A stretch of DNA of 32,000 nt from Candidatus Saccharimonadota bacterium (lineage in GTDB: Bacteria > Patescibacteriota > Patescibacteriia > 2-12-FULL-60-25). The stretch is taken from positions 810,001 to 842,000 of the forward strand of contig CP060222.1 in NCBI GenBank assembly GCA_023898425.1, given 5' to 3'. The position numbers were made by a program, and so were the translations under genes. Shown piece after piece: positions 12,829 to 21,575 of the stretch; the first letter of the stretch is position 1, and each line of letters begins with the position of its first letter. The notes beneath the pieces were generated by a model. The model made no database searches, was not told the DNA's origin, and was given only the letters and a program-made list of their open reading frames with translations.

Positions 12829-13407
12829 GTGAAAACAAAACCCAACGTATTCGTTCACACGGTCAAATCGCGCCGTGCAGATAACGGTGCGTTGAGTAAA
12901 CTTGGCTCTCAAGAGGTCGACAAGATCTTGAAAGAAGCTGAGGAACACTTTGACTTTGATACCGCTTTGCATGCTCAAATTGCAAAGCATGCCATTATCA
13001 CAAATCCGCTTTCAACAAAGCGCGAAAGTGATACCTTTCCAAGCATTATTGTTCATGCAAATAACGAACGTCATCAGCAACATTGCTCGCATTGCGAACA
13101 AGAAGCAGAAGAGATTCGTCAGTGCATCGATGATGTGCGAAATTCAGATTACGCTGTTCTCGCTCTACCATCACTCGGTGGTGAGCTCATGAGCGTCATC
13201 ATACAAACCTGTAGTACCCAGAACATACCGCTCCTACTGCTGACGCCACATCATGTTGAAGGGTATGCTCCTCGTCTCATTGAGTCGATGGACTTTGCCT
13301 GTTTCAATGCTGGCTATACAAGCTTTAGTGACATGCGAAACATCATTGATACGATGTTTTACGGCAAGCTTTTCGAAGCTGCTCGGCAATGCGTAAACGT
13401 CTCGTGA
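12829..13407 (+). CDS. hypothetical protein (192 aa), orphan; weak resemblance to nucleoside 2-deoxyribosyltransferase-like Rossmann proteins
   Basis: GTG start 6 nt after AAAGGAG. The segment DYAVLALPSLGGELMSVIIQTCSTQNIPLLLL is only suggestive of that fold. Confidence 0.6.
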   Translation: MKTKPNVFVHTVKSRRADNGALSKLGSQEVDKILKEAEEHFDFDTALHAQIAKHAIITNPLSTKRESDTFPSIIVHANNERHQQHCSHCEQEAEEIRQCIDDVRNSDYAVLALPSLGGELMSVIIQTCSTQNIPLLLLTPHHVEGYAPRLIESMDFACFNAGYTSFSDMRNIIDTMFYGKLFEAARQCVNVS

Positions 13408-17383: not shown

Positions 17384-18124
17384 ATGTATCCACCAGACGC
17401 AGACTACCGCCCGCTGGAGGAACGATTGGGACACACATTCAGTGACCGCTCGTTCCTCCTGCAGGCCCTCACCCATCGTTCTTATCTGAACGAAAACACC
17501 GATCACACCTTTCCTCATAACGAACGCCTAGAATTTTTAGGTGACGCTGTGCTTGAGCTCATTGTGACTGAGCACTTGTATAAAACGTATGAAAATGACG
17601 AAGGCGATTTAACTAATTGGCGGGCCGCACTTGTTAATGCAAAGACATTAGCTGGCATTGCACGCGGACTTGAGTTTGAAGACTATATCTTGATGTCCAA
17701 AGGTGAGGCACGTGACAAAGATGGCAAGGCGCGCATGTATATTCTTGCAAATGCTATCGAAGCTATTATCGGTGCTATCTATCTTGATGGAGGTATGGTT
17801 GCCGCCGAAAAGTTCATACACTCATGCATCTTGAGTCAACTGAAAGAAATTCTTGAATTTGAGCTCTATGTGGATCCTAAAAGCAAGTTTCAAGAGACCT
17901 CGCAAGAACTCTTAGGTATTACACCAACGTATAAAGTACTAGAAGAAGTCGGGCCAGATCATCTTAAAGAGTTCACTATAGGTGTTTTCTTGGACAAAGA
18001 CTTGGTTGCCGTTGGCAAAGGTACCTCTAAGCAAGAAGCTCAGGTTGCCGCCGCCGAAGCTGGACTCGAGGCTAAGCAATGGCGCACAAGACGTACACGC
18101 GAGGCGCCAAAAGAGGCTAAGTAG
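17384..18124 (+). CDS. rnc: ribonuclease III (246 aa)
   Basis: Signature ERLEFLGDAVLE plus a C-terminal dsRBD. ATG at 17384; the ORF-track start at 17213 overlaps ndk. Confidence 0.92.
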   Translation: MYPPDADYRPLEERLGHTFSDRSFLLQALTHRSYLNENTDHTFPHNERLEFLGDAVLELIVTEHLYKTYENDEGDLTNWRAALVNAKTLAGIARGLEFEDYILMSKGEARDKDGKARMYILANAIEAIIGAIYLDGGMVAAEKFIHSCILSQLKEILEFELYVDPKSKFQETSQELLGITPTYKVLEEVGPDHLKEFTIGVFLDKDLVAVGKGTSKQEAQVAAAEAGLEAKQWRTRRTREAPKEAK

Positions 18125-18135
18125 AGCCAAATAAT

Positions 18136-18210
18136 CCCTTCCTCTTTCTTTGAGAAAGAAGGGCAACCGATTCAGATTCAGACCTCCCTCTTCTTTCCCA
18201 AAGAAGAGGG
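18136..18210. repeat. two tandem, mutually similar hairpins (CCCTTCcTCTTTCTT..AAAGAAGGG and CCCTCTTCTTT-CCC-AAAGAAGAGGG)
   Basis: The second is a perfect 11-bp stem (18186-18210). A GATTCA GATTCA tandem lies between them (18169-18180). Confidence 0.55.
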
Positions 18211-18233
18211 AATGAGGGAGATGATTCATATGT

Positions 18234-18273
18234 AAAACCACTTATTGACAAAATAGGTGGTTTTTGCTACTAT
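18234..18273 (+). promoter_or_regulatory. rnc terminator hairpin whose loop carries the -35 of the next promoter: TTGACA (18245-18250), 17 nt, TACTAT (18268-18273)
   Basis: AAAACCACTTAT-TGACAAA-ATAGGTGGTTTTT. The 12-mer ATTGACAAAATA lies at 18244-18255. Confidence 0.6.
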
Positions 18274-18355
18274 GTCTGGGCATTTCAAAGGCACTGTTGC
18301 TTTTGCGATACGTTCTTCCACATATAAAGGAGGCCGGCAATAGCCGGTAAGGTAC

Positions 18356-19234
18356 ATGAACGACACGAACAACTCCGCCCTGAGCCTGACCAGCATCGAA
18401 AACCGCAAGGCCGCCCTCGAGGCGCGAGCAGAAGAGCTCAAGCAGAAGAAGCTCAGCGCCATCCAGAAGGCGCTGCAGCCGCCGCCCCCGAAGGTCATCC
18501 CGAAGCCTGCACCACCCAAGATGGTGAAGTGCAAGGATGAGGAATGTCAGCTCGAAGGAGGGCTCTTCGTGCCCGCCAAGGCGAGCTACAAGATCTGTCC
18601 GGCCTGCGCTCGGCGTAGGCAGGAGATCGCCAAGGCCAAGCGCGAAGAAGAGCGCAAGGCCAAAGAGGAGCTCCGCAAGCTCGAGAAGGATCTCGAGAAG
18701 CAAGAGCAGCTCCTGCAAGACTTCGAGGCTGGCAACGGCAAGGCGCTTCTCTGCGTCACGCCGGGCTGCGAAACAATCGAGGCCCCAGGCAAGGGGTACA
18801 ACCCCGACTGGGAGTTCCACTGCTTCAAGTGCCGGGAGGAATTCCGGCAGAAGAGGCATCTGATGCCGAAAGCGGCTCCCTGGAGCACGCCGGCGCAGCA
18901 GGCCGCGCCTCCTATCAAGCCCAAGAAGGAGCTCTCGGAGACTCAGGCCCGCAAGGACCTGAAGGCTTCGGCCGCCGAGGCCTACATCGCGGGCAACCCG
19001 TTGCCCGCCGGTGTCACGATGCACCATCAGGTCGATCGTCAGATCATCCTGAAGTTCGTGGGCGAGAACGGTGAGAAGGACTTCTTCCACAAGTTCTTCT
19101 TGCCCATCGGCGACGAAGAGAAGCGTGCCAACAAGGCCGCTTCCAACAAGCGGCGCCTCGAGAATCGGCAGCGCATCGCCGATGAGCCCAAGGGCTCGAA
19201 GAAGGACGCCAAGAACAAGGGCAAGCGGAAGTAG
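18356..19234 (+). CDS. hypothetical Lys-rich protein with two C-x4-C-x16/17-C-x2-C zinc-ribbon modules (292 aa), encoded at anomalously high GC
   Basis: Own promoter, AAAGGAGG, and terminator. Cys motifs CKDEEC..CPAC and CVTPGC..CFKC. 53 of the first 60 codons end in G/C. 40 AAG against 2 AAA. Confidence 0.8.
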   Translation: MNDTNNSALSLTSIENRKAALEARAEELKQKKLSAIQKALQPPPPKVIPKPAPPKMVKCKDEECQLEGGLFVPAKASYKICPACARRRQEIAKAKREEERKAKEELRKLEKDLEKQEQLLQDFEAGNGKALLCVTPGCETIEAPGKGYNPDWEFHCFKCREEFRQKRHLMPKAAPWSTPAQQAAPPIKPKKELSETQARKDLKASAAEAYIAGNPLPAGVTMHHQVDRQIILKFVGENGEKDFFHKFFLPIGDEEKRANKAASNKRRLENRQRIADEPKGSKKDAKNKGKRK

Positions 19235-19263
19235 CCTCCTACTCCCCACCCTATTACCTACCT

Positions 19264-19306
19264 GAACCCGCTCGACATCACTGTCTTGAGCGGGTTCTTT
19301 ATTTTC
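19264..19306 (+). terminator. intrinsic terminator of the GC-rich gene
   Basis: GAACCCGCTC (19264-19273) pairs with GAGCGGGTTC (19288-19297), followed by TTTATTTT. Confidence 0.75.
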
Positions 19307-19412
19307 TCATATTTTTACAATAGCCTATTGACCATCCTCTCAAAACATCGTAGCGTCGATTTTGTTCGATACCGAACCTTATCGTCATACATCCAAAGAG
19401 GCACGGTAAATC

Positions 19413-19730
19413 ATGGGAGATCTTGGCGAAATTCGCTGCAGCAATAACACTTGCAGACAATTCCATTCTCCAAAAAAACTTCTACCGAACGGAAAAAGCT
19501 ACTGCAATTTGTGCAGAAGAAAACACTTTCAAGCGAAATCACCAACACATCGTACACAAACCCTTGCGACGCCAATTGACCTCTACATAGAAGCAGTGAA
19601 GCGACTTATCGAACTCAGTATGCCGCTACCATCAGACGTCATCTATACATATGATCCGCTGACACGCCGTGGTCATATCAAAATCGACAGCGAGTCCTTT
19701 GGTAGAGCAGAATCACCTTTTAATCCCTGA
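19413..19730 (+). CDS. hypothetical single zinc-ribbon protein (105 aa), paralog of the GC-rich gene at native GC
   Basis: CSNNTC-x16-CNLCRRKHFQ has the same spacing and flank as the two modules in 18356-19234. C-terminal PLPSDV..IKID resembles PLPAGV..LKFV. Confidence 0.7.
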   Translation: MGDLGEIRCSNNTCRQFHSPKKLLPNGKSYCNLCRRKHFQAKSPTHRTQTLATPIDLYIEAVKRLIELSMPLPSDVIYTYDPLTRRGHIKIDSESFGRAESPFNP

Positions 19731-19738
19731 TATTTCTC

Positions 19739-19766
19739 TCCCCGTTTTGATGACGGGGATTTTGTT
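19739..19766 (+). terminator. intrinsic terminator
   Basis: TCCCCGT-TTTGATG-ACGGGGA followed by TTTTG. Confidence 0.65.
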
Positions 19767-19770
19767 ATCA

Positions 19771-19798
19771 AAAAACCACCTAATAGGTGGTTTTTTGC
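19771..19798. terminator. bidirectional terminator hairpin abutting the tRNA-Arg 3' end
   Basis: AAAAAACCACCT-AAT-AGGTGGTTTTTT. Near-identical arms to the hairpin at 18234-18266. Confidence 0.7.
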
Positions 19799-19799
19799 G

Positions 19800-19874
19800 T
19801 GGTACGCCCAGAGGGAATCGAACCCCCATAACCGGTTCCGAAGACCGGGACTTTATCCGTTAAGCTATAGGCGC
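19800..19874 (-). tRNA. tRNA-Arg (anticodon UCG), CCA encoded
   Basis: Hand fold: acceptor GCGCCUA/UGGGCGU (two G-U pairs), anticodon arm CCGGU-CUUCGGA-ACCGG, T arm GGGGG-UUCGAUU-CCCUC. 75 nt. Confidence 0.8.
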
Positions 19875-19926
19875 GTTTAAACGTGCGCAGAGCGTATAGG
19901 TTTTTTACGGTTTCATCAAGCGAGAT

Positions 19927-19956
19927 GATTGACAAAATAACATTTTATTGTTAATG
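19927..19956 (+). promoter_or_regulatory. sigma70-like promoter: -35 TTGACA (19928-19933), 17 nt, -10 TAATGA
   Basis: Third copy of the 12-mer ATTGACAAAATA (19927-19938). Confidence 0.5.
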
Positions 19957-19991
19957 ACAGTAAGCAATTTTGCACCTTTGAAAGGAACCAC

Positions 19992-20597
19992 ATGTCAGTA
20001 GAACGTGTCTCTCAAATGCCTCTGCATGCCGCAACGATCTATACGAAAGAAGCGTTTGATCAATACGTGTCAGAAGCACGATCGCGCCCTGATTATCAAG
20101 AACCTTTCGCTTTTGCGATAGGTATCGCAACGTTAGACGAGAGTGGCGTCGTCATCGACATGTGGCATCCTACCATCAACACAACGATTGACGGGGTTTT
20201 GCAAAACAAAGGCTCAGCCGTCGTTTTTGCAGATGCCGTTGGTTATAAGGGTGGCAATAAGTGCTATATCTTGAATTATGCGGATACGCTCACCATTGGT
20301 GCGCGTTTTCATCCCTTCATCAAGGATGATATCCGCAACACGATTCAACAACACCCAAATATCGATGCAGCTTTTAAAGCGAGTCTTGTGCTTTTGTATC
20401 AAGACGACCAAAAAGATTATATCTACAAACCAACGCTGACTCTGCTGAGCGACATTGATGACAGCACTGCTTCGCTAGCAGATAGATGGCTAGTAGAGAG
20501 AATCAAAAATAACGATACTACAGACAAACCTCTTGTTGATCTATCGCTGTATAAGAGCTCTCCAAGTAGAGACCTCTACAAAAAACTCAAAGGCTGA
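19992..20597 (+). CDS. hypothetical protein (201 aa); N-terminal region resembles the N-terminal domain of actinobacterial-type DapD
   Basis: AFAIGIATLDESGVVIDMWHP compared with M. tuberculosis DapD AAGIGLATLAADGSVLDTWFP, which I recalled from memory. No LbH acyltransferase repeats are present. Confidence 0.55.
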   Translation: MSVERVSQMPLHAATIYTKEAFDQYVSEARSRPDYQEPFAFAIGIATLDESGVVIDMWHPTINTTIDGVLQNKGSAVVFADAVGYKGGNKCYILNYADTLTIGARFHPFIKDDIRNTIQQHPNIDAAFKASLVLLYQDDQKDYIYKPTLTLLSDIDDSTASLADRWLVERIKNNDTTDKPLVDLSLYKSSPSRDLYKKLKG

Positions 20598-20641: not shown

Positions 20642-21575
20642 TATTTCCAAAATCCCGTGATATAGCTGGTTGTATTTGCTTGATCGTTTGTATAATCCGT
20701 TGAAATTTTCTGTTGAGAAAGATGCCAAGTTGGATTCTTTAAAGCACGGAGTAGCAATGATACCTGAACACCGCTATCAATATAATCATCAGAAGCTGTG
20801 GCAAAAATGTAGCATTATTTTCGTCTAATGCCTTAAGTGTTATTTGATCATTAATGAGTGCCTGCTCTTTATCAAGGTAATGCGACATGTCAGCCGAGAT
20901 CAATACCATTGTTTTAGAATCTTGAAGCACCTTTTCTAGCCACTTAATAAAAAGATCTGCGTCTTCCTCGGATATACGTCCTTTTACTGTTACTGGCAGG
21001 ATTTCCACGTCAGGAAACTCATGCGCGTAAAATGGAATAAGGGCCGCAATGCCATGCTCCTTTAAAAAAACCGCTTGTTCAAAACCCATAACAGGAACTT
21101 CTTGGCGTAATTGATTTAACAATATTTCATTTGTTTTTATCGTAACGCTGCTGGTTTCATAACTTGGATTTGCCGTTGTTATCGAATGCGCTCCACGATA
21201 AAAATGATCAGGCGAAATAATCACGATCGTCTCAATGTCTGGACGACATTTTTTTAATAGTCGTGCACTTTGCGCGATTAAGTCCGCGGCCAACGCGTGA
21301 TGATTTACGATCCCCGCACGAAATGAATAACACTCCATCAATGGGGCATTCGTAGCAAACGCTTGTCGAACACGATCTTCTGCAACAAATGGTTTTGTCT
21401 GTACAACAAAAGGTTTTTCTATCGCTTCATCAAAAGCAAATTGATAAGGAATAACGCCTTGTTTCTGCGAAGCACTCTTTTTTGGCGCTTGAGGCAAGAA
21501 TTGGAGCATCACAATAACCGCGACCACCAAGGCCGCGGTTATACATGCGATAATGATTTTTCGTGTTTTGCTCAT
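20641..21575 (-). pseudogene. Memo-like / AmmeMemoRadiSam system protein B family gene, interrupted by a 1-nt frameshift in a homopolymer
   Basis: Motifs GIVNHH, ISPDHF, KEHGIAALIPF, ISADMSHY. After the T5 run (plus-strand A5 at 20803-20807) the -1 frame continues as FATASDDYIDSGVQVSLLLRAL...TTSYITGFWK* (stop at 20641-20643). That looks like the genuine family C-terminus. Confidence 0.7.

Follow-up and report, generated by a model that had tools for sequence, protein, structure and literature searches.

In this work, we examine a 32,000-nt stretch of DNA (hereafter the window) from contig CP060222.1 of assembly GCA_023898425.1, and we particularly focus on one of its genes, a coding sequence (CDS) of 292 codons that lies between rnc, which encodes RNase III, and a tRNA-Arg gene. 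The third codon positions of this CDS are far richer in G and C than those of the genes around it. The usual causes do not explain this anomaly, which is carried by a novel family of orphan proteins. In bacteria, GC anomalies of the size of a gene are routinely taken as a mark of horizontal transfer, and this standard inference appears to fail here. The reading that we favour, with a probability of about one half, is that of a native, clade-restricted orphan gene subject to a lineage-conserved and gene-specific synonymous regime, rather than that of fresh foreign DNA. Our best guess is that the maintaining force would be selection on the mRNA, acting on its stability, its protection from AU-directed RNases or the pacing of its translation. 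If selection on the transcript were indeed the cause, this would be an unusually clean natural case of synonymous sites driven almost to fixation for an RNA-level property, and it would be found in the Patescibacteria (Candidate Phyla Radiation, CPR), where codon-usage selection is generally thought to be weak.

The GC content, measured in 300-nt windows, is 0.59-0.63 across positions 18301-19200, against 0.34-0.51 elsewhere in the 32 kb. At the finer scale of 40 nt, it exceeds 0.5 from ~18340 and falls below 0.35 after ~19280. Both scales bear out the original prediction, made from the letters alone, of a high-GC block of ~1 kb that is coextensive with a single CDS. The overall GC content of this CDS is 0.62, with values of 0.61, 0.40 and 0.85 at the first, second and third codon positions (GC1, GC2 and GC3), and GC3 is uniformly high along the gene (0.73-0.96 per block of 30 codons). 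The 26 other open reading frames (ORFs) of the window have a GC3 of 0.32-0.51 (mean 0.394, standard deviation 0.048), which places the CDS at z = 9.6. When the comparison is extended to 49 other genes of the same genome, taken from the window and ~20 kb of additional sequence, no equally high gene is found (GC3 0.32-0.60, z = 6.9). The favoured codons are GCC, CTC, AAG, GAG, ATC and TTC; 53 of the first 60 codons end in G or C, and lysine is encoded 40 times by AAG and twice by AAA. These counts had been given beforehand and, like everything else that the original prediction had stated as directly seen, they were confirmed on recheck.

Several ordinary causes can be set aside from the composition itself. 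The gene resembles those under translational selection in its strong promoter and in the near-exclusive use of C at NNY codons (TTC, ATC, AAC, TAC), but it also prefers AAG, GAG and CAG. Above all, the genes of the same genome that are of a highly expressed type do not share its bias: GC3 is 0.37 for L32, 0.42 for L20, 0.60 for L35, 0.40 for IF3 and 0.35-0.52 for the ATP synthase subunits, SmpB falls within the 0.35-0.60 range, and lysine is encoded by AAA at least as often as by AAG in most of the ribosomal-protein, IF3 and ATP-synthase genes. Ordinary translational selection is therefore excluded. The imprint of the mutational bias of a donor genome on the protein was also rejected, given the GC2 of 0.40, a FYMINK fraction of 0.28 (0.24 in the background) and the 42 lysines for 19 arginines, a composition that is not donor-like. 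Finally, the avoidance of k-mers shows nothing striking apart from out-of-frame TAA and the Shine-Dalgarno (SD)-like GGA and AGGA, and a reading in terms of toxin- or restriction-site avoidance was dropped.

All the homologs that could be retrieved belong to a narrow clade. A word-indexed search of 5.8e9 protein clusters returned a 97% variant alone, and an exhaustive HMMER scan of 1.84e9 protein representatives gave four matches, namely this same variant, a 56-aa protein that is 98% identical to the C-terminal 43 residues, P0002 (49%) and P0004 (31%). Profile searches of the 5.8e9 clusters and of metagenome contigs only added contigs of the same species, and a search of viral contigs gave no family match. 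P0002 is found in an ndk-rnc-X-tRNA-Arg context on contig L022, and this L022 ortholog is ~48% identical to the window protein. In L009, three family genes lie in tandem, and P0004 is the product of the first one; L008 has two family genes. Relatives of the gene thus occupy the same rnc/tRNA-Arg slot in the sister genomes, where it had been proposed to look for them.

By alignment, the family falls into two subfamilies. Subfamily A comprises the genes of the window, of L022, of L009 (A1 and A2) and of L008, and subfamily B, which lacks the basic tail of the protein, comprises L009:12759, L008:2594 and the 105-aa ORF that follows the CDS in the window. The latter had been noted as an adjacent paralog at 19413; the family relation holds, but a close paralogy does not (BLASTP E = 0.018), this ORF being a truncated member of the second subfamily. 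The subfamily-A gene is present, though diverged, in the four closest lineages, and it is found in none of those where rnc is 83% identical or less. Its GC3 is 0.85 in the window, 0.94 in L022, 0.83 in L008 and 0.79 and 0.85 for A1 and A2 of L009, for respective backgrounds of ~0.39, ~0.55, ~0.50 and ~0.59. Expressed as logit(GC3 of the gene) minus logit(GC3 of the background), the excess is 2.2 in the window, 2.6 in L022, 1.6 in L008 and 1.0-1.4 in L009. The subfamily-B genes, for their part, stay near the background (0.40 for the 105-aa gene, 0.57 in L008 and 0.70 in L009), with a logit excess of 0.0-0.5. The unusual codon regime that had been offered as an alternative to a recent acquisition is favoured by these homologs, which are restricted to close relatives and share the high GC3. 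It had been anticipated that a transfer would be undercut by homologs of this kind in low-GC relatives only; the homologs are indeed confined to close relatives and have the same high GC3, but the relatives that carry subfamily A are of intermediate GC (52-56%) and not low-GC.

The upstream region is shared as well. The promoter that had been recognized in front of the CDS was found again, with a TG extension in addition, and it is part of a hairpin/promoter module that lies 5' of all five subfamily-A genes compared, in four genomes. This module consists of an 8-bp stem, a TGACAAA loop and a T-run, with the TTGACA box spanning the 5' arm of the stem and the loop, and the -10 box 17 nt downstream. 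Every subfamily-A copy conserves the TTGACAAAA loop and the -10 region. The stem shows 100% pairing with three compensatory pairs, and its wobbles are U-G on the + strand only, which suggests that an RNA hairpin, that is, a read-through terminator, is fused to the promoter. In the window, this hairpin would likely act as an intrinsic terminator against read-through from rnc. The foreign CDS had been imagined behind a native-type promoter, and this promoter is not a local add-on, since the same module precedes every copy. The 5' untranslated region (UTR) is homologous in L022, where its GC content is 0.61, and it has there the same unusual SD-hairpin-ATG layout; in the window, its GC content of 0.49 agrees with the native composition that had been described, and the spacer between rnc and the promoter is at 0.42. 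In the same way, the stem of the window (CCACTTAT/ATAGGTGG) has A-T pairs where that of L022 (CCACCCGT/ACGGGTGG) has G-C pairs. As both the stem and the UTR match the composition of each genome, the non-coding part has ameliorated and the third codon positions have not.

These observations bear directly on a scenario that the original prediction had put forward and that we now hold to be very improbable, namely that a foreign CDS was recently acquired from a bacterium of high GC, from the phage of such a bacterium or from the high-GC host of an episymbiont. The case resembles a classical tRNA-adjacent island by its sharp, gene-sized GC anomaly and by its variable slot of differing gene content at the 3' end of a tRNA gene, which is a classic integration site; besides, the GC3 of 0.85 and the codon usage would suit a genome of ~62-65% GC. 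It differs from such an island in that the slot contains no integrase, its borders carry no att-like repeats and no outside donor was found: homologs are lacking beyond closely related Patescibacteria and in the viral collections, and those that exist are local, share the slot and the promoter module of the window gene and have the same bias. The 14-nt direct repeats (at 18252 and 19782) that flank the two-gene cassette were considered as att sites and rejected, as they are parts of two terminator hairpins. It also differs from a transferred outlier in its amino acids, the low GC2 and the lysine-rich composition not being donor-like, and in a bias that outlasts a saturating synonymous divergence.

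This divergence can be put on a time scale. At the fourfold sites of rnc and ndk, the window differs from three sister genomes at 55-63% of positions, while the sisters differ among themselves at 36-46%. A Jukes-Cantor three-taxon estimate gives a branch of ~0.8 substitutions per site for the window lineage. Under a two-state model with an equilibrium GC3 of 0.39, neutral decay along this branch from 0.85-0.94 would leave a GC3 of ~0.48-0.57, to be compared with the 0.85 that is seen. At the conserved residues of the gene itself, the fourfold sites differ from those of L022 in 58% of cases, which amounts to saturation, and yet both genes stay G/C-ending. Together, the saturation and the predicted decay imply either that a directional force keeps these positions at G or C or that the CDS came late from an unsampled GC-rich carrier.

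A candidate for such a force appears when the mRNA is folded in silico. The minimum free energy (MFE) of the whole CDS is -405 kcal/mol, whereas its synonymous shuffles give -342 kcal/mol; two runs place the gene at z = -7.0 and -8.9. Local folding in 60-nt windows gives z = -7.4 and -7.7, which ranks the gene first among 28 ORFs, the 27 others of the window having a mean of -1.4 (standard deviation 1.6, minimum -5.65), and its local folding energy per 60 nt is about -20.6 kcal/mol, where the neighbouring genes have about -10. The signal is stronger on the sense strand than on the antisense strand (local z = -7.7 vs -5.8). Six perfect local hairpins are present for 1.7 expected, a number reached or exceeded in 3 of 500 shuffles, and both of the rare TTG leucine codons fall within predicted stems. 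Around the start codon, the structure is on the contrary weaker than in the shuffles (z = +2.2). In the sister subfamily-A genes, the folding z lies between -3.9 and -5.0; the dapD gene of a sister genome, used as a GC-rich control, has -3.2, and ordinary genes have -0.6 to -2.0. Perfect hairpins are in excess in the window gene and in the subfamily-B gene of L009, and in no sister subfamily-A gene; neither palindromic hexamers nor long-range reverse-complement 9-mers exceed the synonymous shuffles in number. As a side observation, two window ORFs of ordinary GC content (838-1689 and 12829-13407, both on the + strand) also fold markedly better than their synonymous shuffles, with local z values of -5.65 and -4.4.

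Katz and Burge, in 2003, reportedly compared native with codon-shuffled sequences for local mRNA structure in bacterial coding regions. The gene studied here resembles the cases ascribed to selection for mRNA structure in that the native CDS is more stable than its synonymous permutations and is relaxed at the start codon; it is set apart by the unusual magnitude of the effect (z of about -7 to -9) and by its coupling to a GC3 shift of +0.46 that affects one gene alone. A review of such selection, for local secondary structure within the coding regions of bacterial mRNAs, is available (PMC3575835).

From these elements, the following scenario can be proposed. A small and fast-evolving family resides in the variable rnc/tRNA-Arg(TCG) slot of a few closely related species of Patescibacteria (Uhrbacteria-like). 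Each subfamily-A copy forms an insulated unit made of a terminator hairpin holding the -35 box in its loop, a strong promoter, a UTR, the CDS and a terminator. A gene-specific directional force would hold the third positions of subfamily A rich in G and C through a saturating synonymous divergence and in genomes of differing composition, and it is because the genome of the window lineage would have drifted to ~45% GC that the gene would now stand out as a CDS-sized GC block. The force itself would most likely be selection on the transcript, for a very stable, hairpin-dense and AU-poor mRNA with a long functional life or a controlled translation. Vertical inheritance is inferred here from the synteny and from the shared promoter and UTR, not from a tree.

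A number of points weigh against this scenario. The genome background is that of only ~50 kb of sampled sequence, and all the RNA structures are predictions. Over the first 30 codons, GC3 already stands at 0.87 while the structure there is weaker than in the shuffles, which means that structure is not the sole driver and that a codon or composition component must exist. Considering the dapD control at -3.2 and the two ordinary window ORFs at -4.4 and -5.65, the folding signal of the sister genes is modestly above the background. A scaled selection coefficient of ~2 per site would be needed to hold GC3 at 0.85-0.94, a high value, as the gene is not known for strong expression. Lastly, the nearest ortholog is only 48% identical, and, since the relatives cover 42-59% GC, a GC-rich donor inside the clade is conceivable.

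Before turning to such a donor, it should be said that the locus is authentic. The exact 292-aa protein occurs with the same neighbours in six assemblies (two metagenome-assembled genomes from NCBI, two JGI metagenomes and two Logan assemblies), and one ENA contig carries a 97.6% variant of it. All seven independent assemblies are colinear with the window over both compositional edges, at 97.6-99.96% identity. A chimeric assembly, which had been raised as a caveat, or a contaminating fragment would account for the sharp compositional edges and for nothing more, and in view of this colinearity we consider it practically negligible. There is no single-nucleotide polymorphism (SNP) in the CDS among the six assemblies; this was rejected as the signal of a sweep, the SNP-free zone extending over rnc too. 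Only three synonymous differences are known in the gene within the species, all of them A in the window and G in the assembly L001, and they are unpolarised. Between these two strains, which are otherwise 99.6% identical, an 80-nt tract (18319-18400) is ~30% divergent and includes a codon indel. It takes in the last part of the 5' UTR and codons 1 to 15, and it has the look of a short patch left by recombination or of a hypervariable N-terminus.

The slot in which the gene resides is bordered by well-conserved elements. The rnc gene is 75-93% identical in 13 related genomes, and the tRNA-Arg gene adjoins it in all of them. The distance between the two differs among relatives, from ~50 bp to 3.9 kb, and the slot is therefore variable: it measures ~50 bp in L010, L011, L018 and L019, while L012, L015, L016, L017 and L020 have small, unrelated ORFs in a slot of 0.4-1.4 kb. 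In L022, the window, L008 and L009, it spans 1.2, 1.7, 2.0 and 3.9 kb, respectively. In L012 (~2200-2950), a HicA-like and a HicB-like ORF, judged by eye from their translations, form a pair in the slot, which thus collects different small accessory cassettes.

Such a slot lends itself to another explanation, in which the CDS or a promoter-CDS cassette was fairly recently recombined in and has not yet ameliorated, its source being either a relative of higher GC that escaped sampling or a mobile, GC-rich pool of such cassettes. The slot holds from zero to four genes, the HicA/HicB-like pair among them, the conserved rnc and tRNA genes would serve as homology arms, the relatives span a wide GC range, the divergent tract of L001 shows that divergent alleles recombine here, and both the absence of SNPs in the gene among six assemblies and the mere 48% identity of the closest known ortholog agree with an import. 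We hold this explanation to be unlikely, though worth serious consideration. Indeed, the subfamily-A gene is far above its own background in every carrier, and no sampled genome has a background of 0.85-0.94; the subfamily-B genes are near the background in all three genomes where they occur; the stem and the UTR have the composition of the resident genome, which would require a junction almost exactly at the start codon; no donor is found among 15 billion proteins; and the SNP-free zone, as it includes rnc, is not specific to the gene.

GC-biased gene conversion (gBGC) at a recombination hot spot in the tRNA-adjacent slot would raise the GC content of sites under weak constraint and would require no selection on either the gene or its mRNA. 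Recombining bacterial genes tend toward a higher GC3 (Lassalle et al. 2015, PMC4450053), and the locus is comparable in that its raised GC3 comes with signs of recombination, that is, the L001 tract and clustered SNP tracts nearby; in the sister genomes, the dapD-like gene beyond the tRNA is also GC3-rich (0.74-0.81). Conversion nevertheless seems to us an improbable cause, because the elevation here is confined to one CDS and ends with it, the UTR, the spacer, the 105-aa gene (GC3 0.40) and the 201-aa dapD-like remnant of the window (0.44) all being at or near the background. Moreover, this fast-evolving protein shows no shift to GARP amino acids or from Lys to Arg, with a GC2 of 0.40, and conversion does not predict a hairpin excess over synonymous shuffles.

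It is also conceivable, though we would put little weight on it, that the coding with G or C at nearly all wobble positions constitutes a functional design rather than a trace of history. In one version of this idea, the avoided codons and the hairpin-dense mRNA may restrict synthesis of the product to certain tRNA or RNase conditions, for instance during dormancy or attachment. In a second and more radical version, the transcript or the gene may be tuned for expression in the GC-richer partner cell of a presumed episymbiont. The bldA/TTA system of Streptomyces is an example of the gating of expression by a rare codon. The gene of the window is similarly written in codons that are used sparingly elsewhere in the genome, but nearly every codon is affected here and not a single rare one.

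The long antisense ORF that had been pointed out opposite the CDS does exist, and it was correctly described as a by-product of the high GC3: its frame shares the codon boundaries of the sense frame and is open because the sense strand has no TTA, CTA or TCA codon. That it would be a real gene, and that the openness of both strands would drive GC3, is extremely unlikely. Long antisense ORFs do lie over the subfamily-A gene in the window, L022, L009 and L008, but this openness is automatic. The divergence from the L022 ortholog is 0.37, 0.36 and 0.48 at the three sense codon positions, so that the third one is the most variable, and together with the conserved Cys columns this identifies the + frame as the coding frame. 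In addition, the antisense product is a Leu/Gly/Arg-rich shadow sequence, and no minus-strand consensus promoter is suitably placed, the sole match in 17900-20100 (at 19954-19925) lying upstream of the tRNA.

The protein itself is laid out as an N-terminal helix, a Cys4 knuckle (C59/C64/C81/C84), a long coiled coil, a second Cys4 knuckle (C133/C138/C156/C159), a small beta domain and a Lys-rich basic tail. C133, C138 and C156 are invariant in eight sequences, and the four cysteines of the first knuckle are invariant in the three subfamily-A sequences aligned. The AlphaFold2 (AF2) model of the 292 aa has a mean confidence (predicted local distance difference test, pLDDT) of 76 and a predicted template modelling score (pTM) of 0.34; in it, long helices and the two knuckle regions are accompanied by a beta unit of three strands, after which comes a helix. 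The model of the 105-aa relative has a pLDDT of 68. Scans of the family against Pfam, PHROGs, PADLOC and NCBIfam gave nothing significant, a profile search of the PDB gave best E values of 0.41-0.67, and Foldseek found no match at E <= 0.001 for either model in the PDB and BFVD. The two Cx4C...CxxC motifs, the conserved cysteines and the Lys-rich tail recall the zinc-ribbon and Cys4-knuckle proteins that bind nucleic acids and have basic tails, from which this protein differs by having no significant match in any of these collections. The predicted zinc knuckles and basic tail suggest the binding of nucleic acids. With its strong promoter, this protein of zinc knuckles, coiled coil and basic tail is probably important to these bacteria.

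The features of the locus are listed in Table 1.

Table 1. Coordinates of the features around the GC3-rich gene, numbered from the first nucleotide of the window.
Feature	Position	Strand	Remarks
rnc (RNase III)	17384..18124	+	left border of the variable slot; Pfam match
Hairpin of the promoter module	18234..18265	+	AAAACCACTTAT-TGACAAA-ATAGGTGGTTTT, then a U-run; inverted repeat whose loop holds the -35 box; folds in silico
Antisense 'shadow' ORF, 335 aa	18242..19249	-	judged non-coding; GC1/2/3 of 0.79/0.42/0.59 mirrors sense positions 3/2/1
sigma-70-type promoter	18245..18273	+	TTGACA-17-TACTAT with TG extension; near-consensus
5' UTR	18274..18355	+	native GC 0.49; AAGGAGG at 18328-18334, small GC hairpin at 18334-18347, then ATG
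CDS of the GC3-rich orphan protein (subfamily A)	18356..19234	+	ATG-to-TAG ORF, 292 codons; GC3 0.85; the sense frame is coding
Intrinsic terminator of the GC3-rich gene	19264..19306	+	stem 19264-19297, then UUCUUUAUUUU; MFE -22.2 kcal/mol, z = -8.0 vs shuffles
Truncated subfamily-B member, 105 aa	19413..19730	+	one Cys4 knuckle, a helix and a beta hairpin; native GC3 0.40
Second hairpin	19739-19759		between the 105-aa gene and the tRNA
Perfect palindrome with 14-nt arms	19769..19797	.	CAAAAAACCACCTA/TAGGTGGTTTTTTG; A- and T-runs on either side
tRNA-Arg(TCG)	19800..19874	-	3' end is the right border of the slot
dapD-like ORF, 201 aa	19992-20597	+	N-terminal domain of tetrahydrodipicolinate N-succinyltransferase only (PF14790, below cut-off)
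Memo-like gene	20739-21575	-	278 aa in the window, 311 aa in three other assemblies

Among these features, the terminator of the GC3-rich gene confirms the one that had been placed there. An Rfam scan found the tRNA alone. The SD motif lies ~22 nt 5' of the ATG, and the small hairpin between them would draw it close to the start. This layout is seen in the window (18328-18358), in L022 (2735-2767) and in L001; it is not that of L008 and L009, in which 5-7 nt separate the SD from the ATG.

Further hairpins are found on either side of the two-gene cassette. Directly 3' of the rnc stop codon (18126-18212), two strong ones are present, a smaller one at ~18136-18160 and TCCCTCTTCTTT/AAAGAAGAGGGA at 18185-18211, and the 150-nt region has a folding z of -4.4. 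They could be rnc terminators, or stems involved in the autoregulation or processing by RNase III. On the other side, the region 19731-19800 contains two consecutive terminator-like hairpins (z = -6.0), of which the palindrome is likely a bidirectional terminator between the 105-aa gene and the tRNA. The 3' arm of the promoter hairpin (18252-18265) has exactly the sequence of the palindrome arm, AATAGGTGGTTTTT.

Beyond the tRNA, the sister genomes have a full-length DapD-like gene of 412-424 aa at the place of the 201-aa ORF of the window. The window copy is truncated, ~35% identical to those of the sisters and of native GC3, and it looks like a decaying or repurposed remnant. More generally, the GC content sampled over 10-20 kb in L008 to L022 spans 0.42-0.59, in lineages with RNase III proteins that are 70-93% identical, and the heterogeneity of GC3 from gene to gene is marked in several relatives (0.42-0.81 in L010). 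In this clade, the evolution of base composition is unusually rapid, and caution is warranted for composition-based calls of horizontal transfer in clades where the GC content moves so fast. Finally, one A is missing at position 20802 of the window compared with three other assemblies of the species, within the Memo-like gene; this difference is either a frameshift variant or an assembly error.

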